DNA from: Alphaproteobacteria bacterium
Lineage (GTDB): Bacteria; Pseudomonadota; Alphaproteobacteria; Bin95
NCBI GenBank assembly: GCA_965222315.1
Contig: OZ244951.1
Location: forward strand, 1,644,346 to 1,708,345
Length of the DNA stretch: 64,000 nt
Direction: 5' to 3'
Shown here: positions 9,415 to 61,546 of the stretch, piece after piece
Position numbering within the stretch: the stretch's first letter is position 1
Layout of the letters: each line of letters begins with the position of its first letter
The notes under the pieces: model-generated
What the model was told of the DNA's origin: nothing
The model's database searches: none
Seen by the model: only the letters and a program-made list of their open reading frames with translations
Translations under genes and position numbers: made by a program

Positions 9415-9864
9415 GCGCTCATTACCCAGCACTGCAGAAAGGCCGGTCCTGCCGAATCTGCACCAAGAAAGCCGCCTTCCCCAATATCCTGGCCAAGATG
9501 CAGCGCTAACCGTACCGCCGAATTCCCAAACTGAGACAGCATCGCTATCAGCATCGTCTGCCAGTGAACTGCCGCGTCTCAGCCAGTCAAAGGTACGGAG
9601 GTGTCCCGCTAAGCCTGAGATAAGACGGTTGAATAAAGCACAACCAAAGGCATGTAACTGTTTAATATCAAAATGTTAACTCATGGCGGAGAGAGAGTCC
9701 GCCATTTAAAGGTAAAACTCTACATAATATATTGTAAATTAATGATTTTATGAATCATCGTATTCCAAAATGTACCGCAAAATGTGCTGCGAATCCTATG
9801 GCTCTTTCGAACTCCGTGGTTCGGCAGCATCCAATAGTCGAATGATATCGGAGAGAACCCAGCA

Positions 9865-13203: not shown

Positions 13204-13242
13204 TCCTCTCGGCGAATGCTTGCATTCGCCTGTCGGGCAACG
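13204..13242 (+). repeat. 39-bp hairpin mini-insertion (copy 1)
   Basis: TCCTCTC-GGCGAATGC-tt-GCATTCGCC-TGTCGGGCAACG. Adds 13 in-frame codons between SAYFA and AELDRP at the orfA/orfB junction. Confidence 0.7.
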
Positions 13243-15075: not shown

Positions 15076-15114
15076 AAGAATTTCTGGTTCATCGAATCCA
15101 TGGTGGAGCGAATA

Positions 15115-15461
15115 TGAACAAGAAACCCGGAACATCGAAAGATGCCGCTGACAAGCTGGTCAGAGGCATCAAGCGGACGACCGGCAAACACTACTCAGCA
15201 GAGGAGAAGATCCGCGTCGTGTTGGCTGGCCTGCGTGGCGAAGAGAGCATCGCCGCCCTGTGCCGGCGCGAGGGTATCGCAGAAAGCCTGTACTACACCT
15301 GGTCGAAGGAGTTCCTGGAAGCTGGCAAGCGTCGCTTGGCCGGTGACACGGCGCGTCAGGCCACGGCGCCGGAGGTCAAAGAATTGCGCTCAGAGGCGGT
15401 GGCCCTGAAGGAAGTCGTTGCCGAGCTGACCTTGGAAAACCGGCTGCTGAAAAAAGTATGA
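15115..15461 (+). CDS. IS3-family orfA (HTH/leucine-zipper protein)
   Basis: MNKKPGTSKDAADKLVRGIKRTTGKHYSAEEKIRVVLAGLRGEESIAALCRREGIAESLYYTWSKEFLEAGKRRL...LTLENRLLKK. Confidence 0.75.
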
Positions 15462-15932
15462 CAGGGGTTGGGGAGGACGATACATGAGATACCCCGCCTC
15501 TGAGAAGCTGGAAATCATCCGCACGGTTGAGGCCTCGCATCTGCCGGTAAAGCGAACGCTGTCGATGATCGGCATCCCCAGCAGCACCTACTATGACTGG
15601 TATGCCCGCTGGGTCGACGGCGGCCCGGAAGCCCTGGCGGATCGTTCTCCGAGGCCAAAGGCGGTCTGGAACCGCATCCCCGACACGGTCCGTTCCGACT
15701 TCGTGGCGTTCGCGCTGGACCATGAGGACCTGACACCCCGGGAACTGCCGTCAAATACACCGATGAGAAGCGATATTTTATCTCGGAATCATCGGCTTAC
15801 CGCATCCTGAAGGCCGAGGATCTGATCACGGCGCCGGCGCATGTGGTGATCCGGGCCGCCGATGAATTCAAGAACAAGACAACCCGTCCCAACGAGCTCT
15901 AGCAAACCGACTTCACCTATCTCAAGGTCATC

Positions 15933-15971
15933 CCCTCTCATGGTTTGCACGCAAACCACTGCCGGGCAACG
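15933..15971 (+). repeat. 39-bp hairpin mini-insertion (copy 3)
   Basis: CCCTCTCAT-GGTTTGC-ac-GCAAACC-ACTGCCGGGCAACG, lying between TDFTYLKVI and GWGWFYL. Confidence 0.75.
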
Positions 15972-16253
15972 GGCTGGGGCTGGTTCTATCTCAGCACGAT
16001 CCTCGACGATTACAGCCGCTACATCATCACATGGAAGCTGTGCACGACGATGAAGACCGAGTATGTCACCGCCACCCTGGAACAGGCGCTGCAGGCGTCA
16101 GGCTGTGACCAGGCAACCCTCATCCATCGCCCGAGGCTACTCAGCGATAACGGATCTTCCTACATCGCCGGTGACCTGGCCAAGTATCACAAGGCCAAGG
16201 GTATGGAACATGTTCGCGGCGCCCCGCATCACCCTCAGACCCAAGGCAAGATC

Positions 16254-16290
16254 GCCTCTCGGCGTTGCACGCAACGCCTGCCGGCCAACG
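16254..16290 (+). repeat. Hairpin mini-insertion (copy 4, 37 bp, shorter stem)
   Basis: GCCTCTC-GGCGTTGC-ac-GCAACGCC-TGCCGGCCAACG, lying between QTQGKI and (E)RWHQTMKN, at the catalytic Glu of the DDE motif. Confidence 0.7.
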
Positions 16291-16626
16291 GAGACGCTGG
16301 CACCAAACCATGAAGAACCGCGTGCTGCTCGAAAATTACTTTTGCCCGGCGACCTTGAACGGCGGATCGGCGCCTTCGTCGAGTACTACAACGACCGCCG
16401 ATACCACGAGAGCCTGGGAAACCTGACACCCGCCGATGTGTATTGCGAACGTGGCGCGCAGATCCTGAAAATGAGAAAGGAGATCAAAACCAAGACCATC
16501 GAAACCCGACGGTTGCAGCACCGAAAAGCAGCCGCCTAAACTGATCCCGAAACCGAACCAGAGCCTCCGTTACGAAAACCTGAGCGCAGTCCGAAAAACT
16601 CTGACGACGGACAAGAAGCAAGGACA

Positions 16627-17327
16627 GTGACGATTTCCAACGAAGTACTGGACGAACTTCTGAATGGCTGCGAGCGGCCTGAGGATTTGTTTGGCGACAC
16701 CGGGCCGATGAAAGAGCTGAAGATCAAGCTAATGGAGCGGATGCTGGGGGCCGAGCTGACGGCGCATCTGGGCTATGAGACAGGCAAGGATGCCCCGCCG
16801 GAGCAGCCGAACCGGCGTAACGGTAGCGCCGGCAGAAGGCTGGAGGGCCAGGATGGCGAGGTGCCACTATCCGTCCCCCGGGGCCGCGATGTGCACCTGG
16901 TGCGCCATTCCCTGAACTTCTGGCCTGGAAGGACCGCAAATCCGTGGCGGGCGACCTGCGCCGGATTTATGGGGCTGCCACGGTCGACCAGGCTGCCGCC
17001 GAACTGAACGCATTCGAGGAAAAATGGGCCGGTAAATGCGCTTCGATCGCCCCAGCTTGGCGGCGGGCATGGCAGGAGGTGATCCCGTTCTTCGCCTTCG
17101 ATCCGGCAATCCGCAGGATCATTTACACGACGAATGCCATAGAAAGCCTGAACCGGGTCATCCGCAAATCGATCAAGACGCGCGGGTCATTCCCGACCGA
17201 AGACGCTGCCACCAAGCTGATTTATCTCGCCATCCGCAACTTCGAGAAAGGCGGCAGGAATGTCAGGGAGTGGTTTGCCGCCCGAAACCAATTCGCTATC
17301 CTGTTTGCCGAGCGCTTCAACGCGTGA
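16627..17327 (+). pseudogene. IS256-family transposase with central (catalytic) deletion and a frameshift
   Basis: N-terminal part MTISNEVLDELLNGCERPEDLFGDTGPMKELKIKLMERMLGAELTAHLGYE...VPRGRD joins directly to VHLVRHSLNF...AGDLRRIYGAATVDQAAAELNAFEEKW...IYTTNAIESLNRVIRK. Confidence 0.75.
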
Positions 17328-17927: not shown

Positions 17928-17958
17928 TTGAAGCTCTAGTAGCTGAAGGGACTATCTT
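17928..17958 (+). promoter_or_regulatory. MerR-type promoter (19-bp spacer) upstream of the P1B ATPase, with no adjacent regulator gene
   Basis: TTGAAG-CTCTAGTAGCTGAAGGGAC-TATCTT. Shares TTGAAsCTCTAG with the promoters at 31149-31179 (minus) and 32328-32358. Confidence 0.5.
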
Positions 17959-17990
17959 TGGAGAACCTGCGCAACATTGAGGTTCTTGTT

Positions 17991-20339
17991 ATGCCTTCCG
18001 ATACCTATTCCCACCAGCACAATCATGCCGCTGCCGGCGGCTGTCAGGCAGCTGCGCACGATCACAACCACGATCATGCCTGCTGCGGCGCTGACGTTTC
18101 AACGGGATCTCCGGACGCCGCCGGACGCAGTTTTCAGGTCAACGGGCTCGATTGCGTCGAGGAAGTGGCGATCCTGAACCGGGTGGTCGGGCCGGTGGTC
18201 GGTGGCGAGCAGCATCTGGGTTTCGACGTGATCAACGGGCGGATGACCGTACTCGATACGGCCAGTGCGGTCGGCGACGACCGGATCATCAAGGCAGTCA
18301 ACGGCACGGGCATGAGCGCCCGGCCATGGAATGCCGACGATGCCGACGCCGACCGGGCCGCGCATCTTCGCCGACAAAAATGGTTCACGGGCGCCAGCGG
18401 CGGGTTCTGGGCGGCCGGCTTCCTCTGGCACATCGTAGAGACAGGCATGGCCGGCGCGCTTGGGCTGTTCTCCGGGCATGGCGAGGCACCGATTCCCTTG
18501 CCGGAGGCCGGGCTCTTCGGGCTGGCCATCCTGTTTGGGGTCTGGCTGGTCGCACCAAAGGCATGGTCGTCGGCCCGGCGGCTATCGCCCGATATGAATC
18601 TGTTGATGATCATCGCCGTGGCCGGTGCGGTCGGGCTCGGCGAGTATTTCGAAGCGGCGACCGTGGCCTTCTTCTTCTCGCTTTCGCTCTATCTTGAGAG
18701 TTGGAGCATCGGGCGGGCGCGGAACGCGGTCGCAGCACTGCTCGATCTGGCACCGCCAACGGCGAGGGTGATCCGCCCGGACGGCAGTGAGGCGACGGTG
18801 CCGGCCGAACAGGTCGCAGTCGGAGACCGGTTTGCGGTCCGCGGCGGCGACCGTATTCCGCTCGACGGCGAGATAACGGATGGGATGGGCGCGGTCGATC
18901 AGGCACCAATCACGGGTGAGAGCGCGCTAGTCTCCAAAGAGCCCGGCGACACTGTTTATGCCGGCACGATCAATGGCGAAGGTACGCTGATCGTGCGCGC
19001 CACCAAGACGGCGGCGGACACGGTGTTGTCGAAAATCATCCGCATGGTCGGCGACGCCCATTCCCGCCGGGCCGAAGTGGAGCAGTGGGTGACGCGGTTT
19101 GCGCGCGTTTATACTCCGGCCGTCATGGCGCTAGCCGTCCTTATCGCCCTGTTGCCGCCACTCGCCATGGGCGGGGATTGGGGGTTTTGGTTCTATAATG
19201 CGCTGGTGCTGCTGGTCATCGCGTGCCCCTGTGCGCTGGTGATCTCTACGCCCGTTTCCATTGTCGCCGCGCTCACCGCCTCCGCCCGGTCGGGCGTGTT
19301 AATCAAGGGCGGCGCTTACGTGGAGGCTCCTGGCCGAACCACCGCGCTGGCCATGGATAAAACCGGAACCATCACCGAGGGTAGACCGGAAGTTGCCTCC
19401 GTGCATCTGCTTAGCAGCGCCAGCGAAGGAGAGCTCATCGCGATGGCGGCGTCGCTTGAGACGCGCTCTTCACATCCGCTGGCTAGGGCAATTTTAGACC
19501 GTGCCAAACAGGAGGACCTGACGGTCGCGGCAGCGGAGGATACCCGCACGGTGCCGGGGCGTGGGCTGGAAGGGCGATTGAATGGGCGCGCGATCTGGCT
19601 CGGATCGGACCGCTTTGCCACGGAAAAGGGGCTTGGCGACGCGATCCCCGCCGAATTGCGCAACCGGATCGAGGACGCTGGCGCAACGCTGGTCGCCATC
19701 GGTCACGAGGCCGGGGTGGTGGGAGTGCTCGAACTGCGCGACCGCATCCGCCCCGATGCGCGCGGCATCGTGGCAAAGCTGCACGCCCAAGGCGTGAAGA
19801 CCATCGTGATGCTGACGGGCGACAACGAACGCACGGCGCGCGCGGTGGCGGCTGAAGTGGGCATCGACGAGGTACGGGCCGAGCTTCTGCCGGAGGACAA
19901 GGTCACCGCCATCGAGGAGCTGGTGGCCCAGCACGACGTGGTGGCGATGATCGGGGACGGCGTGAATGACGCCCCCGCCATGGCGCGGGCGCACTATGGC
20001 ATCGCCATGGGCGCGGTCGGCTCTGACGCAGCGATCGAGACGGCGGACATCGCTTTGATGACCGACGACATCGGCAAGGTGCCCTGGCTGATCGGCCATT
20101 CGCGCCGCACGATGGGCATCATCCATCAGAACATCGGGATCTCGCTGGCGACGAAAGCGCTGTTCGTCGGGTTGACCGCCTTTGGCATGGCGACAATGTG
20201 GGGCGCTATTGCGGCCGATGTCGGCGTTTCGTTGCTCGTTGTGGCCAATGCACTGCGACTTCTCAATACGAACGAAAGAGAGGCGCCGCCGGCAGAAAGC
20301 GAACACGCGTCAACCGCAGCGCTGGCAGATGGTGGTTGA
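17991..20339 (+). CDS. Heavy-metal P1B-type ATPase, Zn/Cd/Pb (ZntA/CadA-like) class
   Basis: His-rich N-terminus SHQHNHAAAGGCQAAAHDHNHDHACCG. CPC in ACPCALVISTP, DKTGTIT, GDGVNDAP. TM7 Lys (SLATKALF) and TM8 Asp (AADVGVS) as in the Zn/Cd subgroup. GAGG before the ATG at 17991. Confidence 0.85.
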   Translation: MPSDTYSHQHNHAAAGGCQAAAHDHNHDHACCGADVSTGSPDAAGRSFQVNGLDCVEEVAILNRVVGPVVGGEQHLGFDVINGRMTVLDTASAVGDDRIIKAVNGTGMSARPWNADDADADRAAHLRRQKWFTGASGGFWAAGFLWHIVETGMAGALGLFSGHGEAPIPLPEAGLFGLAILFGVWLVAPKAWSSARRLSPDMNLLMIIAVAGAVGLGEYFEAATVAFFFSLSLYLESWSIGRARNAVAALLDLAPPTARVIRPDGSEATVPAEQVAVGDRFAVRGGDRIPLDGEITDGMGAVDQAPITGESALVSKEPGDTVYAGTINGEGTLIVRATKTAADTVLSKIIRMVGDAHSRRAEVEQWVTRFARVYTPAVMALAVLIALLPPLAMGGDWGFWFYNALVLLVIACPCALVISTPVSIVAALTASARSGVLIKGGAYVEAPGRTTALAMDKTGTITEGRPEVASVHLLSSASEGELIAMAASLETRSSHPLARAILDRAKQEDLTVAAAEDTRTVPGRGLEGRLNGRAIWLGSDRFATEKGLGDAIPAELRNRIEDAGATLVAIGHEAGVVGVLELRDRIRPDARGIVAKLHAQGVKTIVMLTGDNERTARAVAAEVGIDEVRAELLPEDKVTAIEELVAQHDVVAMIGDGVNDAPAMARAHYGIAMGAVGSDAAIETADIALMTDDIGKVPWLIGHSRRTMGIIHQNIGISLATKALFVGLTAFGMATMWGAIAADVGVSLLVVANALRLLNTNEREAPPAESEHASTAALADGG

Positions 20340-24894: not shown

Positions 24895-25710
24895 GTGAGC
24901 TGGGCAATCGAAACAAGAGGCTACTCGCAACGGCGCGCCTGCGCCCTGGTGGGCCTGTCGCCGAAAACCTACCGGTACGTGTCCAGGCGGCCGGACGATG
25001 ACGCGCTGCGGCAAGAGTTAAGACGGCTTGCGGATGAACGCCGCCGTTTCGGCTACTGGCGCCTGCACCTGCTGCTGCGCCGCCAGGGCTATGAGGCGAA
25101 CCATAAGCGCATCTTCCGGATCTATCGCGAGGAAAAGCTCGCAGTCCGCCGGCGCGGCGGCCGCAAGCGGGCGCTGGGGACACGAGCGCCGATGGCAATC
25201 CCGCAAGGCCGGAACCATCGTTGGTCGACCGACTTCATCCACGACGTGCTGGTCGACGGACGGCGCTTCCGGGTGCTGGCGGTCGTAGACGACTTCACGC
25301 GGGAGTGCCTGGCGCTGGTGGCCGATACTTCTCTGTCGGGCCAGCGCGTTGCCCGTGAGTTGGATCGGCTTGTCGAATGGCGAGGGACCCCCTGCATGAT
25401 CGTGTCCGACAACGGCACGGAGTTTACGTCGAACGCGATCCTGCGATGGGCTGACTGCGCCCAAGTCGAATGGCACTACATCGCTCCGGGAAAGCCGACC
25501 GACAATGCCTTCATCGAAAGCTTCAACGGCAAGTTCCGGGCCGAGTGTCTGAACGCCCACTGGTTCATGAGCCTTGACGATGCGCGGCGAAAAATGGAGG
25601 ACTGGCGTAGAGACTACAACGAGGTTCGTCCCCACAGCGCCATCGGCAACAAACCGCCGGCAGCGCTGCAACCCGGGCTCAGCAGGCTACCGCCAGCAAG
25701 GCCCAATTAA
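24895..25710 (+). CDS. IS3-family orfB (DDE transposase), open frame
   Basis: [27 protein letters not shown]...[10 protein letters not shown]...[10 protein letters not shown]...[11 protein letters not shown]...[17 protein letters not shown]...[15 protein letters not shown]. Confidence 0.8.
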
Positions 25711-25768
25711 CCCCCACGAGGTCCCAGCCGAGCGGACCAAAAACGGGGAGCGGGTCAGAAGAATTCAG

Positions 25769-26188
25769 ATGACGACAATCGCATCTTCGAAAGCGGGCGC
25801 GTTTTCGATTGGCGATCTGTGCAAGCGAACCGGAGTCAACATCGAGACGATCCGATATTACGAACGCATCGATCTCCTGCCTGCCGCGCCGCGCACCGTT
25901 GGCGGTCGGCGAAGCTACGCAGAAAGCCATGTCCGGGTGCTGACGTTCATTCGGCGGAGCCGTGAGCTTGGTTTTCCCATTGGCGACATCCGAACGTTAC
26001 TCGGATTAGCGGAACCGGAAGACACGTCCTGCGCCGAGGTCGAGAAGATCGCCCGCGCTCATCTGGATAGCGTCAGATCGAAGATCGCCGGCCTGACGAG
26101 GCTGGAGCGGATCCTAAGCGAAACCGTATCCCAATGTGGAGGCGATGACGCGCCGTCTTGCCCTGAGTTGGATGTGCTCAGCGCATAG
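25769..26188 (+). CDS. MerR-family metal sensor, divalent-type (no. 1)
   Basis: HTH FSIGDLCKRTGVNIETIRYYERIDLL. Cys at the ZntR-C79-equivalent position (EDTSCAEVE). C-x7-C loop QCGGDDAPSC. Confidence 0.75.
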   Translation: MTTIASSKAGAFSIGDLCKRTGVNIETIRYYERIDLLPAAPRTVGGRRSYAESHVRVLTFIRRSRELGFPIGDIRTLLGLAEPEDTSCAEVEKIARAHLDSVRSKIAGLTRLERILSETVSQCGGDDAPSCPELDVLSA

Positions 26189-37054: not shown

Positions 37055-38390
37055 CTGTGATCGGGCCGTTTCAGTCAAGTGTTTCGTGTCTCAAGCGGGT
37101 CCATGCTTCTGTCCGTGGTCAGTGTTTCTGCCACATGATGCGAACTAAGGAGGTGGACGGCACAATCTCTACCCCGTGCTCGAGGCAACACCGGCAGATG
37201 CGTGCTCACCCAACCTTCGTCCCCGCTTGGGACTTCGTTACCGGCGCGACATTCGCAAAGCCGGCAAACCGGATTAGGCGGCAGTCTCCTTGTCGGCCGA
37301 CCATTGGAATGGCATCTGCGTTTTCCACATGCTGTGAAGGATCACCGCTAGTTTCCGCGCGACCGCCACCCGCGCCTTTTTCATCCCACTGCGTCGGGCA
37401 ACCCGCAGCCCCCAGTTCTTCAACGCCGACCATCGTACAACACGACCGAGCAACGTCGTCGTCGCCTCATAGAGGGCCGTGCGTACCGACGCATCGCCAG
37501 CCTTTGTTATATGGCCGCTCCGGTCGATCTGTCCCGACTGGTATCGGCTTGGTGTCAGACCTAGCCAGGCCCCTACATCCTTGGATCGACGGAATCTGTC
37601 GGGATCGTCGACAGCATTTCTGAATGTCAGGGCAACGATCGCCCCGACACCTGGCGCTGTCATTAGGGTTTGAACCACGGGATCGGCACGCGCCACCTCG
37701 AGCAGCCTTCGGTCCAAGTCTCTCAGCTCGCTCAGCAATACAGCACGGATCTTCAGCATTGCTTCAACGAAGATTTCCAACGTCGGGTGGCCTTCAGCCA
37801 GGTTCCGGGCACGCTCAGGCCAGTTTCGCCGGGATACGATCCCAACTTTCAGACCGAAGTTGCCCAAGTTCGCACGCATCGAGTTTTCCAACGCAGTGAC
37901 TTTATCGACCATGAATTGCCGGGCGTTTAGCAGGGCACGTGTTTCCTGTGCGCTGGCCGCCTTGACGTGTACGGCCTTGAACCAGCCCAAACGTACCAGC
38001 TGCGCGATACCTCTGGCATCGTTTCGATCCGTTTTGATCCGCATCGCCGCGAAGGCGGCGTGGACGTGCCGAGCTTCCATGACCGTGACGCGAAAGCCTT
38101 GAGCTTCAAGCCCTGCATGGAGCCATTGCGACAGCCCTCCAGTCTCAAGCCCCACATGTTCGATCTTCCGGCCCTGATGGCGAATGAAACGCCCGAGAGA
38201 TTCCGGATCGCTTGCGGCTTGCCCCTCTTTGATGATTGTCCCTGTCTCATGAATGACACAGACGCTTGAACTTTCCAGAGCGACGTCGATTCCGACAAAG
38301 AATTGCATGATGATACTCCTCGTGCTGATGGGCTTGTAAGGTTACCATTCCCGACCTCGGAGCGGCTCCAAAGCCCGATCAGCGCATCTC
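37055..38390 (-). mobile_element. IS110-family element no. 2 (IS1111-like layout), inside tnpC; boundaries +/- 3 bp
   Basis: Subterminal IRs GATCGGGC / GCCCGATC. 219-bp non-coding 3' flank and 82-bp 5' flank. Confidence 0.8.
37274..38308 (-). CDS. IS110-family transposase, intact (344 aa)
   Basis: MQFFVGIDVALESSSVCVI...KTDRNDARGIAQLVRLGWF...MTAPGVGAIVALTF...GLTPSRYQSGQID...ITKAGDASVRTALYEA. Confidence 0.85.
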   Translation of the reverse strand: MQFFVGIDVALESSSVCVIHETGTIIKEGQAASDPESLGRFIRHQGRKIEHVGLETGGLSQWLHAGLEAQGFRVTVMEARHVHAAFAAMRIKTDRNDARGIAQLVRLGWFKAVHVKAASAQETRALLNARQFMVDKVTALENSMRANLGNFGLKVGIVSRRNWPERARNLAEGHPTLEIFVEAMLKIRAVLLSELRDLDRRLLEVARADPVVQTLMTAPGVGAIVALTFRNAVDDPDRFRRSKDVGAWLGLTPSRYQSGQIDRSGHITKAGDASVRTALYEATTTLLGRVVRWSALKNWGLRVARRSGMKKARVAVARKLAVILHSMWKTQMPFQWSADKETAA

Positions 38391-39149: not shown

Positions 39150-40629
39150 TCCTATGACCGTTGTCAACCATACGGCACACACTTCTCCCCTTGCCGAACC
39201 AAGGCGATAGCTTTTTGACGATCCTCAGGGGTCAGGGCGCCGCGCTTTTTCGACGGTCGCTCAAACTCCTATTCGGGGATTGGGTACCCCATGATGACGT
39301 TGCGTCGGAAGGCTGCCTCGATCTGGCTGCGGGCGTCGGACGCTGCCTGCCCAAATTTTTGCCCGAGGATTCCTTCTAACCCGTGCGCGACGCCCTGAGG
39401 GCTACCGATCGGTTTTTGCAAAGCCTGTTCTCAGGCGACGGCAAGAGGCACGCGGCGAGCGATATCCCAGATAAACCCGACCAGCTCACGCGCGACCGCC
39501 GTAACAGCTACATTGCTTCGCTTGCCCCGCCCAATCAGTTTTTTGTAGCGACCGTGCAAGCGCAGCTGCGCCTTCCATGCGATGTCCTTGAACTCCTGGG
39601 CCACATCCGGGCGGTTAGCCAGTTGCCACTGTCCCACTTTCGGTGTCGTCCGGTAACTCCACGCCGCTTCGAACAGCAGTGACCGCGCGGCGGTATTACC
39701 TGCTTTTGTGATGCCACGCTGGCGTACGGTACCGCCGCTTGAGTATTCGCCGGGTACCAGACCGAGCCAGGCCATCAGATGGCGGGGGCTGGAAAAGCGC
39801 GAAAAGTCGCCGATCTCCGCAACGAGGGTGGTGGCGATGATCGCCCCAACACCTTTGAGTACCTGGATAGCCCTGACGGTAGCCGCCAACGGCCAAGCCT
39901 CGGAGAGTTCGCCGATTTGCGTTTCCAGTTCTTTCTTGCGCGCTTCAGCCTGCTCAATGCGGTTCAAAAAGCTTTGGAAAGCGACTTGCTGGGCGGGATG
40001 ATCGAAGCGGCGGTCAGCAAGCCACACCCGGTGGCGGTAGCTCCAGCTTTTTCCGTCATAGCGCAGGCCGTTTTTCAGCAAGAACATCTGGACATGAGCA
40101 CGAGCGTGCCGGACATCCTTGGCGGCGAGATAGCGCGCGCGCACCAAGTCCCTCATCGCCTCGTGGATCGGGTCGGGCGTCCAGACATAGGTTAGCTCGC
40201 CAGCGCGGGCGAGCCTGGCGAGCTTCTCGGCGTCTCGGGTGTCATTCTTGATCCGGTCTGATGGAGTGCGCGGCGTGTGGCTCGGCGCGACGACGTGGCA
40301 ACTGACGCCAAGCTCGCTGAGTTGGCGGAACAGCACGTACCCGCATGGCCCAGCCTCGTAAACGAATTCTGGCTTGTGATGTCGCTTGCCGAGTTTCTTC
40401 ACAAACCGCGTGACAGCGTTCGGTGTGTTCGGGATCTCGCCGTAGCGACGAACCTCGCCTCCACGACCGGCATCGGCGATGGCTATAGTGATTGACAGCT
40501 TGTGGACGTCGAGCCCGACAAAGACATCTGGGTCTTTCATGATCCGTTCTCCTTTTCCAACTCGTCGATTGCACTGGCCAGTGCATCCCTCCGCGATTGT
40601 GCGGAAGAGTCGGGAACGGTCATCTCATC
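39150..40629 (-). mobile_element. IS110-family element no. 3 (IS1111-like layout), inside tnpC; boundaries +/- 2 bp
   Basis: Subterminal IRs ATGACCGTT / AACGGTCAT. 281-bp non-coding 3' flank and 89-bp 5' flank. Confidence 0.8.
39431..40540 (-). CDS. IS110-family transposase, intact (369 aa)
   Basis: VFVGLDVHKLSITIAIADAG...KNDTRDAEKLARLARAGEL...LKGVGAIIATTLVAEIGDFSRF...GLVPGEYSSGGT...ITKAGNTAARSLLFEAA. Confidence 0.85.
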   Translation of the reverse strand: MKDPDVFVGLDVHKLSITIAIADAGRGGEVRRYGEIPNTPNAVTRFVKKLGKRHHKPEFVYEAGPCGYVLFRQLSELGVSCHVVAPSHTPRTPSDRIKNDTRDAEKLARLARAGELTYVWTPDPIHEAMRDLVRARYLAAKDVRHARAHVQMFLLKNGLRYDGKSWSYRHRVWLADRRFDHPAQQVAFQSFLNRIEQAEARKKELETQIGELSEAWPLAATVRAIQVLKGVGAIIATTLVAEIGDFSRFSSPRHLMAWLGLVPGEYSSGGTVRQRGITKAGNTAARSLLFEAAWSYRTTPKVGQWQLANRPDVAQEFKDIAWKAQLRLHGRYKKLIGRGKRSNVAVTAVARELVGFIWDIARRVPLAVA

Positions 40630-40827: not shown

Positions 40828-41758
40828 GAGCCCAACTCGAAAAGAGTTGAGCGGTTTCAGTAGGATGTGATTCCGTCTGGTTTGCAGACTGGACGGAGCC
40901 GATGATGCCTTGGACTGAAGCCGCTCGCCGTGAGTATCAGCGGGAGACGCCGCGCTATGCAAGCGATCTGACTGACCATGAGTGGGCGTTGATCGCGCCG
41001 TTCATGCCGCCGCCGCGCCCGATTGGTCGACCGCGCAAGACCGATCTGCGCGAGGTGATGAACGCGATCCTGTATATCGGCTCGACCGGCTGCCAATGGG
41101 CGATGCTGCCGAAGGACTTTCCGCCGTATTCGACCGTTCAGCGGTACTTCTACGACTGGCGGGACAGCGGGTTGCTCAAGACGATGCGCTTCACGCTGGC
41201 GATGGAGACCCGCGAACTGGAAGGCCGCGAGGCGCAGCCGACGGCGGGCGTGATCGATAGCCAGACTGTCAAAACCACGGAAAGCGGCGGCGTTAGGAGC
41301 TATGACGCAGGCAAGAAGGTCAACGGGCGCAAGCGGCATATCCTTGTTGACACCACTGGCCTGCTGTTTGGCGCGGTCGTCCATGCCGCCGGCGTGCAGG
41401 ACCGCGATGGCGCGCCGGGCGTGCTCGCCTCGATCCGCAAATCCTGCCCCTGGCTCCGCCACATCTTCGCTGATGGCGGCTATGCAGGGCCGAAGCTGCG
41501 TTGCGCCCTCGACAAGATCGGCAAGTGGACGCTCCAGATCGTCAAACGGTCCGACGCCGCCCAAGGCTTCGAGGTCATCCCGCGGCGGTGGGTCGTCGAG
41601 CGTACCTTCGCCTGGCTCGGACGATGCCGCAGGCTCGCCAAGGACTGGGAGAAATCCATCCCCTCAGCCGAAGCATGGATCGACATCGCCCATATCCGCC
41701 TAACTACCCGACGACTCGCAAGGTATTGGTATGCATGACAGAGTTTCGAGTCGGGCTC
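40828..41758 (+). mobile_element. IS5-family element (931 bp), copy 1, intact, inserted in the right end of IS66
   Basis: IRs GAGCCCAACTCGAAA... / ...TTTCGAGTCGGGCTC. 3-bp duplication TCA (40825-40827 and 41759-41761). Confidence 0.85.
40902..41738 (+). CDS. IS5-family DDE transposase (278 aa)
   Basis: DLTDHEWALIAPFMPPP...GCQWAMLPKDFPPYSTVQRYFYDWRDSG...GVIDSQTVKTTESGG...GRKRHILVDTTG...ADGGYAG...RWVVERTFAWL. Confidence 0.85.
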   Translation: MMPWTEAARREYQRETPRYASDLTDHEWALIAPFMPPPRPIGRPRKTDLREVMNAILYIGSTGCQWAMLPKDFPPYSTVQRYFYDWRDSGLLKTMRFTLAMETRELEGREAQPTAGVIDSQTVKTTESGGVRSYDAGKKVNGRKRHILVDTTGLLFGAVVHAAGVQDRDGAPGVLASIRKSCPWLRHIFADGGYAGPKLRCALDKIGKWTLQIVKRSDAAQGFEVIPRRWVVERTFAWLGRCRRLAKDWEKSIPSAEAWIDIAHIRLTTRRLARYWYA

Positions 41759-42167: not shown

Positions 42168-42959
42168 TCAGGTTTTGGTCAATGTGGGCGCCTCCTTTCG
42201 CTGTTTCTTTGCAGCTTCGGAACTGGCTTTGAAGCGGTAGCTGTCGTTGCCGGTTTCGAGGATATGGCAGCGGTGGGTGAGGCGATCGAGGAGGGCGGTT
42301 GTCATCTTGGCATCCCCGAAGACCTGGGCCCATTCGGCGAAGCTTAGGTTGGTTGTGATGATGACGCTGGTGCGCTCGTAGAGCTTGCTGAGCAGGTGGA
42401 ACAGCAATGCGCCGCCGGATGCACTGAACGGCAGGTAGCCGAGCTCATCGAGGATGACCAAGTCGATCTTGGTCAGCATCTCGGCCGTCTTCCCGGCCTT
42501 TCCCATAGCTTTTTCCTGCTCGAGCGCGTTTACGAGCTCCACGGTTGAGAAGAAGCGGACCTTGCGGCGGTGATGCTCGATGGCCTGGACACCGATGGCT
42601 GTCGCGACATGGCTTTTTCCGGTCCCCGGACCGCCGATGAGCACGACGTTCTCAGCGTTTTCCATGAACTCGCCGCGATGCAGCTGGCGGACGGTGGCCT
42701 CGTTGATGTCGCTGGACGCGAAGTTGAAGCCGGCGAGATCCTTGTAGGCCGGGAAGCGCGCGGCCTTCATGTGGTACGCAATGGATCGGACTTCCCGTTC
42801 AGCCATCTCCGCCTTGAGCAGTTGAGACAGCATCGGCGTTGCGGCCTCGAAGGCAGGTGCGCCCTGTGCGACGAGATCATCCACGGCCTGGGCCATGCCA
42901 TACAACTTGAGGCTGCGCAGCATGATCACGATCGAGGCTCCTGCTGGATCATGAAGCAT
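42168..42959 (-). CDS. istB: IS21 helper ATPase IstB, intact
   Basis: [13 protein letters not shown]...[17 protein letters not shown]...[13 protein letters not shown]. Confidence 0.9.
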
Positions 42960-44104: not shown

Positions 44105-45222
44105 ATGGAACAGCGTGGGTTTTTTAGCCTTTCAGAGCATCTGGAAAAACTGAGTGAGCACTGCGATCCGCTGGAGTGCTCGATGCGACGGTGGACTTCG
44201 AGTATTTCCGCGGCTGGGTGGTCGAGGGCCTTGGCTATGGCGACGGGCGCAAGGGTGGGAGGCCGCCGTTCGATCCGGTGGCGATGTTTAAAGCCCTGAT
44301 CCTGCAAGCGCAGCACAATCTGTCAGACGCCAGGATGGAATTCATGATCAGGGATCGGCTCTCGTGGGTGCGGTTTCTGGGTTTCGACCTGGGCGGTCCG
44401 ACGCCGGACGAGAACACGATCCGGCTGTTTAGCAACAAACTGACCGAGACCGGCACGTTGCGGCGGGTGATGAAGGCCTTAGACTGGCAACTGCAGAAGA
44501 AGGGCTACATCCCCATCGGCGGGCAGATCGTCGATGCCAGCCTGGTACCCGCGCCCAAGCAGCGGAACACCGAGGACGAAAAGGCCCAGATCAAAGCCGG
44601 GAAGTTGGCCAAGGAAATCTGGCCGGACGCGCCGAACAAGGCGGCGCAGAAGGATACGCAAGGCCCCCTCTCGTGGTTTGCGACCAAACCACTGCCGGGC
44701 AACGGATGGACTTTGAAGATCTGCGGCAAGATCCGCTATCGCCCGGACGGCTCACCGTTGCCGCAGAGCGCCCAGCCGGTGTTCGGGTACAAATCTCACA
44801 TCGCCATTGATCGGCGCTATGGCTTCATCCGGGAATGCACTGTGACGTCTGCCGCGGAAGCGGACAGGCGCATGCTTCGGCAACTGGTGACAACGAACAA
44901 TACATCGTCTGAGGTTTGGGCCAACACGGCCTACCGCTCGAAGCAGAACGAAGAATGGCTAGTCTCGCACATGCTGACGAGCCACATCCATCGCCGGAAA
45001 CCGAACGGAAAGCCGATGTCCAAGGCGACCGCACGCGCCAATGCGAAGAAATCTTCCATCCGCGCCTGCATCAAGCATGTCTTTGCCCATCAAAAGATGC
45101 GCTTCGGCCTGTTCATCCGCACCATCGGCCTGTCGCGGGCCGAGGCCAAACTGACATTGGCCAACATCGCCTACAACTTTGACCGCCTCGTCTTCCATGA
45201 GCGCCGTGCTCTAAAGGCATGA
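44105..45222 (+). pseudogene. IS5-family transposase (second type), with N-terminal frameshift and a 39-bp hairpin insertion
   Basis: MEQRGFFSLSEHLEKLSEH..., frameshift near 44170, then LDATVDFEYFRG...PFDPVAMFKALILQAQHNLSD...QIVDASLVPAPKQRN...KDTQG[insert]RWTLK...FGYKSHIAID. Confidence 0.8.
44666..44704 (+). repeat. 39-bp hairpin mini-insertion (copy 5)
   Basis: CCCTCTCGT-GGTTTG-cgac-CAAACC-ACTGCCGGGCAACG. Removal restores KDTQGRWTLK (the D..RWT block of IS5 transposases). Confidence 0.75.
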
Positions 45223-45364: not shown

Positions 45365-46370
45365 ATCCAATGGCTGTCCGGGAACGCATAGTCGGTCAGG
45401 GTCTCGGCCACATGGCCATCGGCGAGGTCAGTCCCATACGCTGGTGGAGGAGCAGGTCTGAGACGACACTAGCCTTTGCCAGGGCGGCTTCTCGGTTCTC
45501 CTGAGCGTGGATCGCTTTCAGCATTTGGCTGACCTCCCGCACCTTCGCCGCCGGTACATGGCTGAAGAAGTTGCGGTAGAAATGCACGATGCAACGCTGC
45601 CAGCGGGCGTCCGGCAGGTATTCCTCGACGCTCTCCACCAAGTCGCGGCAGGCGTCCGAGATCACCAGTTCGACACCCTGCAGCCCGCGGTCCACCAGAT
45701 GGCGTAGAAAGGCTGACCAGCCGGATTTATCCTCTTTGGCGCCCTCGCAGATGCCCAGGATCTCCCGGTAGCCCTCGGCATTGACACGGATGGCTACCAA
45801 GAGCGAGACATTGCGGACCTCGCCGGCTCAGGTGCGCTTCATGACGATCCCGTCTAGGAAAACATAGGGATGTTCGCCCTCGATCGGCTTGTTCCGCCAG
45901 GCCTCGATCTTGGCCTAAATCTTCTTGTTCAGGTTCGAGACCGTGCTGGGACTGACCCGTGTACCCCACAGCGCCTCGGTGATCTCCTCGACCCGCCGGA
46001 CCGAGACCCCGGCCAGATACATCTCGATCAAGGCCTCTTCGACGGAGCTTTTCCGCCGCCGGTAGCGCTCGATAATCGCGGTCTCGAAGGTCTGCCGGCG
46101 CAGCTTTGGCACCTGCAACTGCACTTTGCCGGCCTTCGTTTCCAGAGAACGCTCATAATGGCCGGCGCGCCTGTCCATGCGGCCCTCGCTCCGTTCATAC
46201 CGGCCCGCGCCGCACAACTGATCCGCCTCGGCGTCCAGCATGGCATTCAGCGCCTCTTCGACCATGCCCCGCACCATCTCACTCAGGTGATCGCGGATGC
46301 GGACTTCATCAATCTGGATAACCTGGCCCATCGGTTTCTGGTCTGTCTTGTCGTCCATTTCCGGTTCCAC
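45365..46370 (-). pseudogene. IS256-family transposase, 3'-truncated, with in-frame stops
   Basis: VIQIDEVRIRDHLSEMVRGMVEEALNAMLDAEADQLCGAGRYERS...VPKLRRQTFETAIIERYRRR...EEALIEMYLAGVSVRRVE...LVAIRVNAEGYREILG...ISDACRDLVESV. Confidence 0.8.
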
Positions 46371-58328: not shown

Positions 58329-58732
58329 CAGACTGGCTCTTTCTGTAAAACCACAGCCAGATCTTCGAGGATCGGACATTCCGGCCGGTGGTCACCTGCG
58401 CAACTCTCGATGAGATGGCCGAGCGTGGCACGCATCGCCTTCAGTTCGGTGATCTTCGCATGGACAAGCTCCAGATGGTGTTGGACGATCTGTTTGACAT
58501 CCGCGCTTGCGCGGTCCTTATCCTCATACAAGGCGAGAAGCGCACGACAATCTTCAATCGTGAAGCCAAGAGAGCGGGCGCGCCCGATGAAGCCCAGCTT
58601 GTGCAGATCCTTATCGTTGAACTGGCGATAGCCGTTGTTATCGCGTGCCGGGGTCACGAGGCCGATATCCTCGTAATACCGGATGGTCTTGGCGGGCAGC
58701 CCTGTGATCCGCGCTACATCTCCGATATTCAT
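58328..58732 (-). CDS. cueR: CueR/HmrR-type Cu(I)-sensing MerR regulator
   Basis: MNIGDVARITGLPAKTIRYYEDIGL. Ser at the CueR-S77-equivalent (DRASADVK). C-x7-C loop CAGDHRPECPI. Confidence 0.85.
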   Translation of the reverse strand: MNIGDVARITGLPAKTIRYYEDIGLVTPARDNNGYRQFNDKDLHKLGFIGRARSLGFTIEDCRALLALYEDKDRASADVKQIVQHHLELVHAKITELKAMRATLGHLIESCAGDHRPECPILEDLAVVLQKEPV

Positions 58733-61260
58733 GCGTGAGCCTCCTGTTCCGCTGGGGCCAGTCGGGCCGCGTGCGTAGAATTTGAAGCTCCGGCACGCGC
58801 GCCCTCGGCCATAGCCGGGCGCAACCGGCGTAGGCGCAGCGCGTTTGACAGCACAAAAACAGAACTGAGCGCCATCGCCCCGGCTGCCAGAACCGGCGAC
58901 AGCAACAGCCCGAAGGCTGGGTAAAGCACGCCCGCCGCCACCGGAATGAGCGCGGTATTGTAGCCGAAAGCCCAGAACAGATTCTGCCGAATGTTGCGCA
59001 TTGTGTGGCGGGAGACCTGAAATGCGTTCACCACACCGCGCAGGTCGCCCGACATTAGCACGACATCGGCGGATTCGATGGCCACGTCGGTTCCGGTACC
59101 GATCGCAATCCCGACATCCGCATGGGCCAGCGCGGGCGCATCGTTGATCCCATCGCCGACGAAGGCCACGCGGCGGCTCTCGCGGCGCAGCGCGTCGATG
59201 GCCGCGACCTTGCCGTCGGGCAGCACCCCGGCGATGACGTGATCAATGCCCACCTCGCGCGCGATGGCGTCGGCAGTCTCGCGATTGTCGCCTGTGATCA
59301 TCGCCACGCACAGCCCGGCGGCGTGCAACGCGCGGATTGCTGCGGCGCTTGACGGCTTGACCGGATCGGACACGGCAATGACCGCGGCGGCCTGCCCGTC
59401 GAGTGCCACGTAAAGCGCGGTGCGCCCGGTTGTGGCGAGGTCGGCGGCCATGTCGGCCAACGCGCCCGTATCCACCCCATCGCGCGTCATCAGCCGGTCG
59501 GAGCCGACCAGCACGTCGCGGCCCGCGACGCGCGCACGCACCCCGTACCCGGTGATTGACTCGAAATTGTCCGCGTCAAGGCGTGCCGCACCCTCGGCTT
59601 CCGCGGCGCGGGTGATCGCCGCGGCCACGGGGTGTTCCGACTGGGCCTCCACTGCCGCCACCGCCGACAGGACGTCTGTGCGCTCGAACCCCTTGGCCAA
59701 CACCAGGTTCGTCAGTTCGGGCCGCCCCTCAGTAACCGTCCCGGTCTTATCGAGCGCCACCGTGTCGATCCCGGCCAGCGATTGCAGTGCGTCACCCTTG
59801 CGAAACAGCACGCCCATTTCGGCCGCGCGCCCGGTGCCCACCATGATCGAGGTCGGCGTGGCCAGCCCCATCGCGCAGGGGCAAGCGATGATCAACACCG
59901 ACACTCCCGCCACCAGCGCCAGCGTCATGCTCGGGTCAGGGCCAACGGTTAGCCACACTGAGACCGTCAGCGCCGTCACGGCCATCACCGCCGGCACGAA
60001 CCACAGCGTAATCCGGTCCACCAGCGCCTGCACGGGCAGCTTGGCGCCCTGCGCGTCCTCGACCATGCGGATGATCTGCGCCAGCGTCGTGTCCGCACCC
60101 ACCCGCGAGACGCGGACCTGCAGCGCGCCCGCACCGTTGACCGTGCCACCCGTCACCGGATCGCCGGGCGCCTTGGCCACCGGCACCGACTCGCCGGTGA
60201 TCATGCTCTCGTCGACATGGACCGAGCCTTGCGTGATCTCGCCATCCAGTGCGATGCGTTCGCCGGGACGCACTAGAAGAGTGTCGCCGACGACGATGTT
60301 GTCGACGACGACATCCTGTGGCACGCCATCGCGAATCACGCGCGCGGTGTTTGCCTGCAGGCCCAGCAGCCGCTGGATCGCCGCGCCGGTCCGCCCCTTG
60401 GCGCGCGCCTCCAGCCAGCGCCCCAGCAGGATCAGTGCCGCGATGACCGCGGCCGCCTCGAAATAGACCGCGCGCACGGCCTCGGGCAGAATGTCCGGTT
60501 GGAATGTCGCCACCACCGAATACGCCCAGGCCGCGCCGGTGCCGACCGCGACCAAGCTGTTCATGTCCGGCGCCCCGCGTAGCAGAGCGGGGATCCCCTT
60601 GACAAAGAACATTCGCCCCGGCCCCGCGAGGATCGCCGTCGTCAGCACGAACTGGAGGATCCAGTTGGCCTGCTGGCCGATCGTTCCGGCGATCAGACCA
60701 TGCAGGCCGGGAATGACATGGCTGCCCATCTCGACGACGACGACCGGTAGCGCCAGCGCGGCGGCAAACGCCGTCCGGCGCGCGGTCTGCCGCGTCTCGA
60801 CCGCCTGACGCGCGGACGCCTCCTCGGTCCTGTCCGCGACGGCCAGTTCGGCAGGATAGCCCGCCGCGCGTGCGGCCGCCATCAGCGCCCTCGGCCCAGT
60901 CGCGTCTTCGGCGTGGCGAATCGTGGCGCTGCGCGCGGCGAGGTTCACGGTGACATCGGTGACGCCAGACACTGCGGCCAGCGCCGCCTCAAGCCGTCCG
61001 ACGCAGGAGGCGCAGTACATCGACGGGATGTGCAGTGTCACGCGCTGCGTGCGCAGGGGATACCCGGCGTGGTCAAGTGCTGCCGCGACGTCGGCCAGAT
61101 CGGCCGGAGCTGTCATTGAAAGCCACGCGGTGCGGGCGGCCAGGTTGACCGACGCGTCGCACACGCCGTCAATCTCGCGCAAGATTCGCTCGACCCGGCC
61201 CACGCAGGACGCGCAGGACATCCCGTCGATTGCTATTGTCAGATGTGGCGCATCGGTCAT
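58729..61260 (-). CDS. copA: Cu(I)-exporting P1B-1 ATPase with two N-terminal HMA domains
   Basis: Two GMSCASCVGRVE / SMYCASCVGRLE domains. CPC, DKTGTVT, GDGINDAP, TM7 YN (FGYNTALIP), TM8 MALSSVFV. Start set at MTDAPHL (61260). Confidence 0.9.
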   Translation of the reverse strand: MTDAPHLTIAIDGMSCASCVGRVERILREIDGVCDASVNLAARTAWLSMTAPADLADVAAALDHAGYPLRTQRVTLHIPSMYCASCVGRLEAALAAVSGVTDVTVNLAARSATIRHAEDATGPRALMAAARAAGYPAELAVADRTEEASARQAVETRQTARRTAFAAALALPVVVVEMGSHVIPGLHGLIAGTIGQQANWILQFVLTTAILAGPGRMFFVKGIPALLRGAPDMNSLVAVGTGAAWAYSVVATFQPDILPEAVRAVYFEAAAVIAALILLGRWLEARAKGRTGAAIQRLLGLQANTARVIRDGVPQDVVVDNIVVGDTLLVRPGERIALDGEITQGSVHVDESMITGESVPVAKAPGDPVTGGTVNGAGALQVRVSRVGADTTLAQIIRMVEDAQGAKLPVQALVDRITLWFVPAVMAVTALTVSVWLTVGPDPSMTLALVAGVSVLIIACPCAMGLATPTSIMVGTGRAAEMGVLFRKGDALQSLAGIDTVALDKTGTVTEGRPELTNLVLAKGFERTDVLSAVAAVEAQSEHPVAAAITRAAEAEGAARLDADNFESITGYGVRARVAGRDVLVGSDRLMTRDGVDTGALADMAADLATTGRTALYVALDGQAAAVIAVSDPVKPSSAAAIRALHAAGLCVAMITGDNRETADAIAREVGIDHVIAGVLPDGKVAAIDALRRESRRVAFVGDGINDAPALAHADVGIAIGTGTDVAIESADVVLMSGDLRGVVNAFQVSRHTMRNIRQNLFWAFGYNTALIPVAAGVLYPAFGLLLSPVLAAGAMALSSVFVLSNALRLRRLRPAMAEGARAGASNSTHAARLAPAEQEAHA

Positions 61261-61297
61261 GTGGGTCGCTTTCCAGGTTCCGATCATACAGATGGGG

Positions 61298-61320
61298 CTT
61301 CCACTTACTGGAAGGTCAAG
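61298..61320 (-). promoter_or_regulatory. CueR-box promoter for copA
   Basis: Minus strand reads CTTGACCTTCCAGTAAGTGGAAG (TTGACC -35 plus CTTCCA/TGGAAG dyad), as in the E. coli PcopA architecture. The -10 is unclear (CATCTG at 19 bp). Confidence 0.55.
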
Positions 61321-61546
61321 AGGCGGCGCCGGAAAAATCGATCCCCGTGCAGCACTGCAGCTTCGCCACATCCATGTCGAAGGTCTGCGCGGCAAGCTTG
61401 AGGCCCGCGGCCGTGGTGATATAGGGGAGGATCATCTCGCTGAGCGCCTTGGTGGCCATGCCGGATTTCAGTGCCATGACGAGCGTCTGGATGGTGTCGG
61501 CCCCCTTGGCTCGGTGCGCGGCAGCAGGCGCGAGCGGCACACGATG
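61316..61546 (-). pseudogene. merA: Mercuric reductase (merA) 3'-terminal remnant
   Basis: ...ADTIQTLVMALKSGMATKALSEMILPYITTAAGLKLAAQTFDMDVAKLQCCTG resembles the MerA C-terminus with its terminal Cys pair. No upstream part is present. Confidence 0.55.

Follow-up and report, generated by a model that had tools for sequence, protein, structure and literature searches.

Small dispersed repeats (SDR), reportedly described by Elhai et al. in 2008 in Genome Res, are said to be hairpin inserts of 21-27 nt in Nostoc and related cyanobacteria. Similarly, Rickettsia palindromic elements (RPE) were reportedly described by Ogata in 2000. The Nostoc SDR work is cited in PMC3116915 and PMC5861425. In the REP/REPIN-RAYT systems (REP, repetitive extragenic palindrome), hairpins of 20-40 nt display conserved unpaired nucleotides beside a covarying stem (PMC2817692, PMC3116915, PMC3479197, PMC8266576), and in REPs a GTAG or CGTC tag sits immediately at the foot of the stem (PMC3733652). 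The present analysis concerns a 39-bp hairpin element at positions 44666-44704 (plus strand) of a 64,000-nt stretch of contig OZ244951.1 of an alphaproteobacterium, hereafter called the window, where it interrupts a transposase gene of the insertion sequence (IS) family IS5. Such hairpins apparently form an undescribed family of 37-41-bp DNA elements of marine alphaproteobacteria that were seen only inside IS genes; a published description of this family was not found in the literature searched by sequence and topic. According to the reading put forward here, to which about an even chance is given, the 39-mer is a copy of a new family of non-autonomous DNA hairpin elements of 37-41 bp, specialised on IS genes and mobilised in trans.

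The element at 44666-44704, CCCTCTCGTGGTTTGCGACCAAACCACTGCCGGGCAACG, was matched by covariance model R1, which was built from 36 diverse copies, with 55.7 bits (E 2e-10). It consists of a left block CCCTCTC (44666-44672), a first stem arm GTGGTTTG (44673-44680), a loop CGAC (44681-44684), a second stem arm CAAACCAC (44685-44692), and a right block TGCCGGGCAACG (44693-44704). A second copy of the same subfamily, also of 39 bp and on the plus strand, is located at 15933-15971 (stem TGGTTTGC/GCAAACCA; 58.5 bits), in orfB of an IS3-family element (TDFTYLKVI^GWGW, the caret marking the insertion point). Counting the common flanking C and G, the two copies are identical at 37 of 41 positions, the mismatches being at position 8 (G/A) and at positions 17-19, in the loop and at the top of the stem (GAC/ACG). 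The initial annotation had counted three differences instead of these four; its statement that the differences preserve the hairpin holds, as both copies fold into a hairpin of 8 bp. It had also described the 44666 copy correctly as a 39-bp sense insertion in a transposase of another family, the host being IS5 and that of the twin copy IS3. A chance match, an assembly artefact, or the co-duplication of a segment common to both IS elements would be another explanation of the pair, with a probability close to nil. The match is short, and nothing else speaks in its favour; it is refuted by the absence of such a pair from all 100 dinucleotide-preserving shuffles of the window, by the unrelated flanks of the two copies, and by the occurrence of the same element in independent complete genomes, metagenome-assembled genomes (MAGs), and metagenomes of many projects.

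The host gene (44105-45222, plus strand) is a decayed copy of an IS5-family transposase gene. Its open reading frame (ORF; 44176-45222), of which the homologues are named IS5 family, contains the domains DUF772 and DDE_Tnp_1 and continues in frame across the element, which is in sense orientation. The insertion point lies between the C and the GA of an Arg codon (KDTQG^RWTLK). As had been proposed, in silico removal of the 39 bp gave KDTQGRWTLK, and the six aligned intact homologues, including P0003, read KDTQARWTLK. Alignment with intact homologues, which the initial annotation had recommended, returned a clean indel at both levels. Exactly 39 bp were missing from the plasmid homologue of Sphingobium (L074), that of Acidiphilium (L073) had a 41-column gap at the element in the same alignment, and no target duplication was found in this comparison. 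At the protein level, the intact homologues displayed a clean 13-residue gap, the window protein having 14 residues in place of the Arg. An intact IS5 homologue with a similar 13-residue loop at this site did not occur among the 120 closest homologues. The peptide encoded by the insert was absent from 118 of these, the carriers being the window protein and the metagenomic protein P0002. The latter (locus L001) bears the same insert in the same codon of an otherwise intact ORF of 372 amino acids; its IS DNA is ~85% identical to that of the window and its element is identical at 35 of 39 positions, and the closest relative of each of the two copies is the empty P0003.

Besides the insert, the window IS5 copy contains a 1-nt deletion near position 44170, which shifts the frame of the first ~24 codons, and a D2 motif that reads WANTAY (WANTAYRS), compared with WADTAY (WADTAYRS) in homologues. 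Judging from its sequence, this copy is a dead gene, because of the deletion and the Asp-to-Asn change. In the IS5-family architecture as we take it to be, D1 is the Asp of IVDASLV, ~45 residues upstream of KDTQ(A/G)RW, and D2 lies in WADTAY; furthermore, the Pfam DDE match on the host protein begins only downstream of the insert. The Asp of KDTQ(A/G)RW, which had been regarded as the first catalytic Asp, is thus probably not that residue, and the conserved block to which it belongs is probably non-catalytic. For the IS5 copy, an insertion at a catalytic motif is therefore probably not the case, and the 15933 site lies 7 codons after D1.

Two further copies were found in the window. The third one, of a different subfamily, is located at 16254-16290 (plus strand, 37 bp; 44.2 bits, E 7e-8) and reads GCCTCTC-GGCGTTGC-AC-GCAACGCC-TGCCGGCCAACG, with the same end blocks and a different, fully compensated stem. 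It occurs in the same IS3 orfB as the 15933 copy, directly 5' of what we take to be the catalytic Glu codon (HPQTQGKI^ERWH). The host of both is a degenerate IS3-family copy with stops and frameshifts (14997-16540, plus strand). When compared with the intact IS3 loci L071 and L072 (Actibacterium and Roseovarius), the 15933 element corresponds to a clean 39-bp gap at KVI^GWGW and the 16254 element to a 38-column gap. The fourth copy (13204-13242, plus strand, with approximate boundaries; 52.4 bits) has the stem GGCGAATGC/GCATTCGCC and the right block TGTCGGGCAACG, and sits in another IS3-family copy, in the region where orfA and orfB join (..KKASAYFA^); in this copy, the IS3 hidden Markov model (HMM) match spans 13216-13707. 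Exactly four strong matches (44-58 bits) were obtained with the covariance model over the 64 kb, the next best one scoring 15.8 bits. All four copies are on the plus strand and in IS genes, while IS sequence makes up only ~26% of the window. The IS5 and IS3 copies are independent insertions, those at 44666 and 15933 being precise and each a clean 39 bp, which bears out the initial view that the element was not co-duplicated with the IS3 copy.

Outside the window, an anchored pattern matched species-representative genomes 10 times, in Rhodobacteraceae MAGs, in Pseudorhodobacter antarcticus, and in unclassified alphaproteobacteria. It also matched 54 metagenome contigs and no viral contig; exact-pattern copies in genomes and metagenomes numbered 67. 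BLAST revealed copies in 15 plasmids of cultured strains, the carriers being Leisingera, Sulfitobacter, Pseudorhodobacter, Antarctobacter, Tabrizicola, Phaeobacter, Loktanella, Pseudosulfitobacter, and Hoeflea. Cultured carriers include Sulfitobacter indolifex DSM 14862 (IS256 at 8708-9958 of pDSM14862_d), Leisingera methylohalidivorans DSM 14336 (IS5, WP_024092534.1), and Pseudorhodobacter turbinis S12M18. In 230 kb of IS-bearing DNA (Rhodobacterales genomes, plasmids, and metagenomes), the covariance model gave 155 matches; it gave no match in seven empty control IS loci. The consensus consists of CCCTCTC, a covarying Watson-Crick stem of 6-9 bp, a variable loop of 2-6 nt, and the right block TGCCGGGCA(A/G)(C/T)G. 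The left block (7 nt) and the right block (12 nt) are both conserved, whereas the stem sequence is subfamily-specific. Looser scans of the collected loci yielded further subfamilies with the same end blocks and with stems such as TCGAATGC, GGGCATGT, ATCGCTGC, TGGATTGC, and ATCGAAAC. The left boundary of the TCCTCTC/CCTCCTCTC variants is uncertain by 1-3 nt, and the distant group-1 IS5 plasmid homologues are too diverged for boundaries to be set. At the element ends, CCCTCTC and CAACG do not form an inverted repeat.

The 114 instances detected with a regular expression collapsed to 64 insertion contexts. Element lengths ranged from 37 to 41 bp, with 39 bp in 34 of the 64 contexts and a length that is not a multiple of three in 30 of them. 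Consequently, an element of exactly 39 bp that stays in frame, as seen at 44666, is not a rule of the family, and the idea that the elements are in frame by design was discarded. A peptide-level function was dismissed too, copies being present in all three phases and in both orientations. Likewise, half-site searches of the window for a larger parent element, the ends of which would form the 39-mer, gave only complete copies. In the stems, 90.5% of the cells were paired, compared with 54% in shuffles and 28-42% in slid controls; there were 98 double changes, and none of 500 shuffles equalled this covariation. Pairing was nearly purely Watson-Crick, with G-U pairs in only 3 of 316 stem cells. 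The target logo displayed C at -1 (70%), G at +1 (88%), A at +2 (64%), and a pyrimidine at +3 (73%), which amounts to a preferred target C^GAY; GAY directly followed the element at 48% of the sites, against a background of 3.5%. In confident ORFs, 31 copies were in sense and 6 in antisense orientation (~18 versus 4 distinct sites, or ~80% sense; p ~0.01), and both orientations occurred within single intact ORFs.

All 64 contexts were inside IS genes, 22 according to HMM matches and the others according to conserved motifs in the translated flanks, and no non-IS context was present among them. The 22 contexts submitted to Pfam and NCBIfam all matched IS families, eight in total, namely IS3, IS5 (three subgroups), IS30, IS66 (transposase and TnpB accessory protein), IS91, IS256, IS481, and ISAs1-like DDE_Tnp_1; three of them (L008, L022, and L007) did so only after the coding segment had been re-picked by eye from six-frame translations. 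IS21 istB and IS630 contexts were assigned by motif reading alone. Five comparisons of filled and empty sites were precise and without duplication, two of them with window copies (IS5 against L073 and L074, and IS3 against L071 and L072), a third with L040 against L025, and the other two as follows. A Sulfitobacter IS256 copy and its empty counterpart (97% identity) differ by a precise 39-bp insertion at LIIA^DDHKGL, and a filled IS5 copy of Leisingera differs from that of Paracoccus by a precise 39-bp insertion at LLI^DSTGIK. Moreover, the same site can be occupied by different stem subfamilies. The copies were thus inserted as DNA, precisely, with neither target-site duplication nor terminal inverted repeats. 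As a side observation, RefSeq lists element-bearing transposases as intact, as is the case for an IS5 transposase (L066; NC_023136.1, WP_024092534.1) and an IS256 transposase (L067; NZ_CP084955.1, WP_040702103.1). Their 13 additional residues in front of the catalytic Asp have tacitly entered the public protein databases.

Many copies are located directly 5' of codons for catalytic Asp or Glu residues, the identities of which we take from family knowledge. The presumed D1 codon follows the element in IS256 (A^DGVYL and IWA^DSVH), in an IS903-type element (LLI^DSTGIK), and, in antisense, in IS481 (FHI^DIAEL). The presumed D2 codon does so in IS256 (IIA^DDHKGL and AVG^DGVLGFW), in IS427-type elements (TA^DGAYD and LLA^DSWYD), in IS5 (FG/WA^DKGY), and in IS3 (VS^DNGTE, IRV^DNRPE, and MNS^DQGSQF). 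The same applies to the presumed catalytic Glu of IS5 (KV^EHVF) and IS3 (GKI^ERW), the presumed catalytic Asp of IS66 (VHA^DGYAGF), and the presumed Walker B Asp of IS21 istB (VIL^DELGY). The association with catalytic motifs that had been suggested from the window hence finds genuine support at the level of the family, although part of it is due to the target preference. About 17 of the 21 sense ^GAY sites, as tallied by eye from flank translations, were in Asp-codon phase (p = 6e-4 with GAY as the background and p = 0.02 with CGAY), and the preference for C^GAY explains the association in part, though probably not wholly.

This placement could be accounted for if the elements inserted nearly at random at C^GAY and if those insertions that disable a transposase were favoured in the host population, and were for that reason the ones seen. 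The restriction to IS genes, the enrichment 5' of catalytic Asp/Glu codons and of the IstB Walker B Asp, and the excess of sites in Asp-codon phase all suit a knock-out of IS elements favoured by the host. This explanation is nevertheless very improbable. Dead genes should decay, yet the ORFs are intact once the elements are deleted and the ratio of nonsynonymous to synonymous substitution rates (dN/dS) is about 0.15. Additional elements in an already dead gene give no further benefit, in-frame 39-bp copies persist at non-critical sites, and the conservation of the element ends is not required by such a model.

Several IS copies contain more than one element, namely three in L042, four in L019, seven in L045, and eight to nine in L013 and L065. 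In silico deletion of the elements restored full-length IS5 ORFs of 322 amino acids in L019 (four elements), 324 amino acids in L042 (39, 40, and 37 nt), and 331 amino acids in L039 (two elements), and IS3 copies, once their elements were deleted, displayed a conserved coding sequence that is uninterrupted over as many as six sites. In L013 and L065 (IS3) and in L045, L018, and L014 (IS3, IS2-like), seven to nine elements of different subfamilies and both orientations are crowded within ~1 kb, and the coding segments between them are still open and conserved. In one IS5 lineage, all 13 copies carry an element at site 1, site 2 is either empty or holds a subfamily of 40 nt or one of 37 nt, and site 3, at the D2 codon, contains the variant CCTTCTC...TGCCAGGCAGTG or is precisely empty. 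The presence or absence of the site-3 element distinguishes L040 (filled) from L025 (empty at the same site), of which the shared IS region is visibly near-identical. Furthermore, a filled IS of 1212 bp is 100% identical in L032 and L033, with no similarity on the only side on which both contigs reach beyond it. Element-bearing IS copies thus keep moving and spreading among alphaproteobacteria, mostly Rhodobacterales. In Pseudorhodobacter turbinis, the element-bearing IS was not multi-copy on its replicon.

A second, unrelated hairpin insert of ~44 nt was encountered in the same IS5 lineage, in L025 (~880-925) and L029 at the same site (WGV^MRKAPKG of the IS5 gene). It reads ..GGCGCTA-CAAACGATCC-NNN-GGATCGTTTG-C.TCACGCTTGAAC and is absent from L040 and from the window. 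Because an unrelated hairpin interrupts the same lineage, IS genes may be colonised by mini hairpin inserts of more than one family.

A DNA element handled as a single-stranded hairpin is favoured because of the seamless empty sites, the covariation restricted to Watson-Crick pairs, the occurrence in both orientations, and the recent differences between filled and empty copies. The element would be mobilised through its extruded single-stranded hairpin by a trans-acting enzyme that it does not encode, in a mode that may resemble the 'peel-and-paste' transposition of IS200/IS605 or the handling of REPs by RAYT, with no duplication and with precise excision. Such excision, or gene conversion, would produce the patchy pattern of filled and empty sites. 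The distribution over IS genes only might reflect survivorship, host genes being intolerant of inserts and IS copies ferrying the elements to new genomes.

Several points weigh against this mobile-hairpin reading. A Y1/HUH gene was found neither in the window nor in the loci by tblastn over ~300 kb with two TnpA queries (IS200 and IS608). The element has one hairpin only, while the ends of IS200/IS605 need two, it lacks the GTAG/CGTC tag of REPs, and covariation between element and target of the IS608 guide type was weak and unconvincing, with none standing out. A sense bias of ~80% would not be expected from a mechanism acting purely on DNA, and the absence from intergenic DNA is left unexplained by a simple parasite model. 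The same model does not explain the selection on carriers of frameshifting elements of 37 or 40 bp at catalytic codons, for pairs sharing the site-3 element had a dS of 0.3-1.1 and a dN/dS of 0.11-0.24, also over the 96 codons downstream. Nor does it explain the identity of the end blocks across IS lineages with saturated dS, as between L019 and L042, of which the stem and loop differ. These selection data fit better with inserts that spare the host gene, through precise removal before or during expression.

The hairpins could accordingly be removable intervening sequences, comparable to introns or to the internal eliminated sequences (IES) of ciliates, that are long-term residents and are cut out precisely by DNA excision in some of the cells or by a step at the RNA level. 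The carriers would then stay functional, and the elements would throttle the production of transposase. We regard this as possible though doubtful, and the same tentative standing is given to its stronger wording, in which bacterial 'genes-in-pieces' would split transposase and helper genes in many IS families, frequently at catalytic codons, would be inherited long-term with the IS, and would be precisely removed to give a working transposase. The restored IS5 ORFs of L042, L039, and L019, the intact coding segments of the IS3 copies with seven (L045) or eight to nine (L013 and L065) elements, and the dN/dS of 0.11-0.24 both upstream and downstream of the shared frameshifting site-3 element, at a dS of up to ~1, argue for it. 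In addition, the CCTTCTC...TGCCAGGCAGTG variant is common to IS5 lineages with saturated dS, and identical ends beside a varying stem and loop are the pattern expected if the ends and a hairpin were needed for removal. Their location at catalytic Asp/Glu codons is reminiscent of inteins and homing introns, and the bias towards the sense orientation and the identical filled IS in two contexts point in the same direction. However, a sequence of this kind has no known mechanism of removal, and an Rfam scan of 44500-44900 gave only noise, no match to a self-splicing intron or known ribozyme standing above it. Translational hopping, as in the bypass of the T4 gene 60/byp type, is excluded by unequal take-off and landing codons (GCC ahead of the element versus GTG as the last codon of the element in L067, and ATC versus GCG in L066). 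Moreover, ~20% of the copies are antisense in intact ORFs, so that their RNA would have a wholly different appearance, and the scarcity of G-U pairs indicates a DNA rather than an RNA structure. Filled alleles are rare near the window IS5 (two of the 120 closest homologues), both host genes of the window are plainly dead copies, and the selection signal may reflect either independent insertions of recent date or gene conversion involving active copies that are empty. With no known mechanism, and with a signal that repeated insertion or gene conversion could imitate, precise removal is considered unlikely here, though it is the main rival of the mobile-hairpin reading.

Gene conversion is also central to an explanation in which the elements have no present mobility of their own. 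A few old insertions would have spread passively by IS transposition, horizontal transfer, and gene conversion, the host IS being mobilised in trans by intact relatives and conversion working best across the regions of catalytic motifs, which are conserved at the nucleotide level. The recurrence of the same variant at the same site in related IS copies and the presence of filled IS copies in several genomic contexts agree with this. So does a mosaic of filled and empty copies that ignores IS relatedness (L039 is filled and its relative L031 empty, and L019 is filled and L050 empty), and conserved motif DNA is where diverged copies can recombine. Passive spread is nonetheless improbable: at least 64 sites in ten unrelated IS families would each need their own insertion, one site may hold different stem subfamilies, and the flanks diverge within 3-10 nt of the element boundary, which would make the conversion tracts extremely short. 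Conversion also leaves unexplained that the blocks are conserved over saturated dS. Passive spread and the host-favoured knock-out of IS elements account for fewer facts than the other readings.

The surroundings of the window copies are rich in IS remains, with dense IS graveyards at 12.9-17.4 kb and ~35.7-46.6 kb. Their content includes an IS66 tnpB gene and transposase gene, two IS110 genes, an IS427-type IS5 element (40902-41738), an IS21 istB gene (42168-42959) with istA fragments, the IS5 copy under study, and IS256 fragments (16627-17327 and 45396-46370). In total, three IS110-family transposase genes, of the RNA-guided, bridge-RNA type, are present, at 13781-14857 (plus strand), 37274-38308 (minus strand), and 39431-40540 (minus strand). 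Two of these are apparently nested in other IS, an IS3 (~13.2-13.7 kb) and an IS66 (~36.0-39.2 kb). The covariance-model scan found no hairpin element in the three IS110 genes. Nearby genes code for heavy-metal P-type ATPases (17958-20339 and 58729-61395) and a MerR-family regulator (25574-26188). A direct repeat with a spacing of 526 bp occurs at ~51.3-52.4 kb, with a 21-nt mini-repeat at 51707 and 52233 and with motif hits and overlapping ORFs at the same spacing; it may represent a tandem duplication within a gene. The TamB homologue at 403-4371 has best named relatives of ~40% identity (Pikeienuella and Limibaculum) and metagenomic relatives of 98% and 87%, which fits a poorly characterised, Rhodobacterales-like alphaproteobacterial lineage as the host of the window. 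Its IS elements are clearly shared horizontally with Roseobacteraceae and Paracoccaceae.

If the family is as it appears, its members are among the smallest mobile DNAs known. As far as the literature search went, they would also be the first reported elements living exclusively inside other mobile elements, with a parasite-on-parasite, or regulator-of-parasite, biology in abundant marine bacteria. The hairpins account for odd 'extra loops' in annotated transposases, NCBI annotation calling such genes intact, and the covariance model offers a means of spotting IS genes that are interrupted. Given the selection signal on such genes, a sharper question is whether bacteria can remove the inserts precisely, and by which enzyme. 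Should bacteria indeed remove hairpin inserts of 37-41 nt precisely, this would represent a new DNA- or RNA-processing activity, which might be a useful tool, and a prokaryotic counterpart of ciliate IES or introners that adds a new layer of transposition control.

Among known systems, the REP/REPIN-RAYT systems resemble the hairpin family not only in their hairpins and unpaired nucleotides but also in being non-autonomous, in having many subfamilies, and in their presumed handling as single-stranded DNA. They differ in that REPs are extragenic, often paired as REPINs, and present in hundreds per genome, flanking a single RAYT gene, whereas the hairpins have conserved blocks of 7 and 12 nt and occur singly and inside IS genes only. 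Although the hairpins are short covarying palindromes, they are not REPs or REPINs, as no GTAG or CGTC adjoins the stem (left CCCTCTC(A/G), right TGCCGGGCA(A/G)(C/T)G; a CGTT on the other strand lies 9 nt from the stem) and all 64 contexts are in IS genes instead of extragenic DNA. With IS200/IS605, IS608, and the palindrome-associated transposable elements (PATE), the family shares the lack of terminal inverted repeats and of target duplication, a short target at one end, seamless empty sites, and hairpin recognition (in part PMC6006769). Those elements have two subterminal hairpins, at least 100 bp, a defined tetra- or pentanucleotide target, and guide-target pairing, whereas the present ones, of 37-41 bp, have a single hairpin and only a loosely defined C^GAY target, and guide covariation was not detected in them. 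Membership of the PATE was therefore rejected, in spite of the absent duplication, the seamless sites, and the short target.

Miniature inverted-repeat transposable elements of the classical type (MITEs) likewise represent small, non-autonomous mobile DNA (PMC10969869, PMC2229807), but have the terminal inverted repeats of a parent IS and target-site duplications; the hairpins have no inverted-repeat ends, and no duplication was found in the five comparisons of filled and empty sites. RPEs and the alphaproteobacterial CGTC-REPs (PMC3733652 for the latter) are palindromes too, and can sit in protein genes and be read in frame. RPEs measure about 100-150 bp and occupy many kinds of host genes, CGTC-REPs possess a CCA tail and bear their tag at the foot of the stem, and neither is IS-specific; the hairpins are not RPEs, given their length of 37-41 bp, the 30 of 64 contexts in which it is not a multiple of three, and their hosts, which are only IS genes. 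Ciliate IES, eukaryotic introners (PMC7789003), mitochondrial byp elements of translational bypass, and inteins and homing introns at catalytic sites are functional analogues only. As in the hairpin family, short inserts split coding regions at conserved sites of a host gene under purifying selection; theirs have demonstrated removal or bypass, and none is known to be bacterial and IS-specific. By analogy, the SDRs appear to be the nearest system in spirit, since they too are tiny hairpin inserts with compensatory stem changes that are inserted precisely in conserved sequence, including mobile elements. They differ from the hairpins in sequence and phylum, in their HIP1 sites, heptamer repeats, and self-nesting, and in showing no restriction to transposase genes and no link to catalytic codons.

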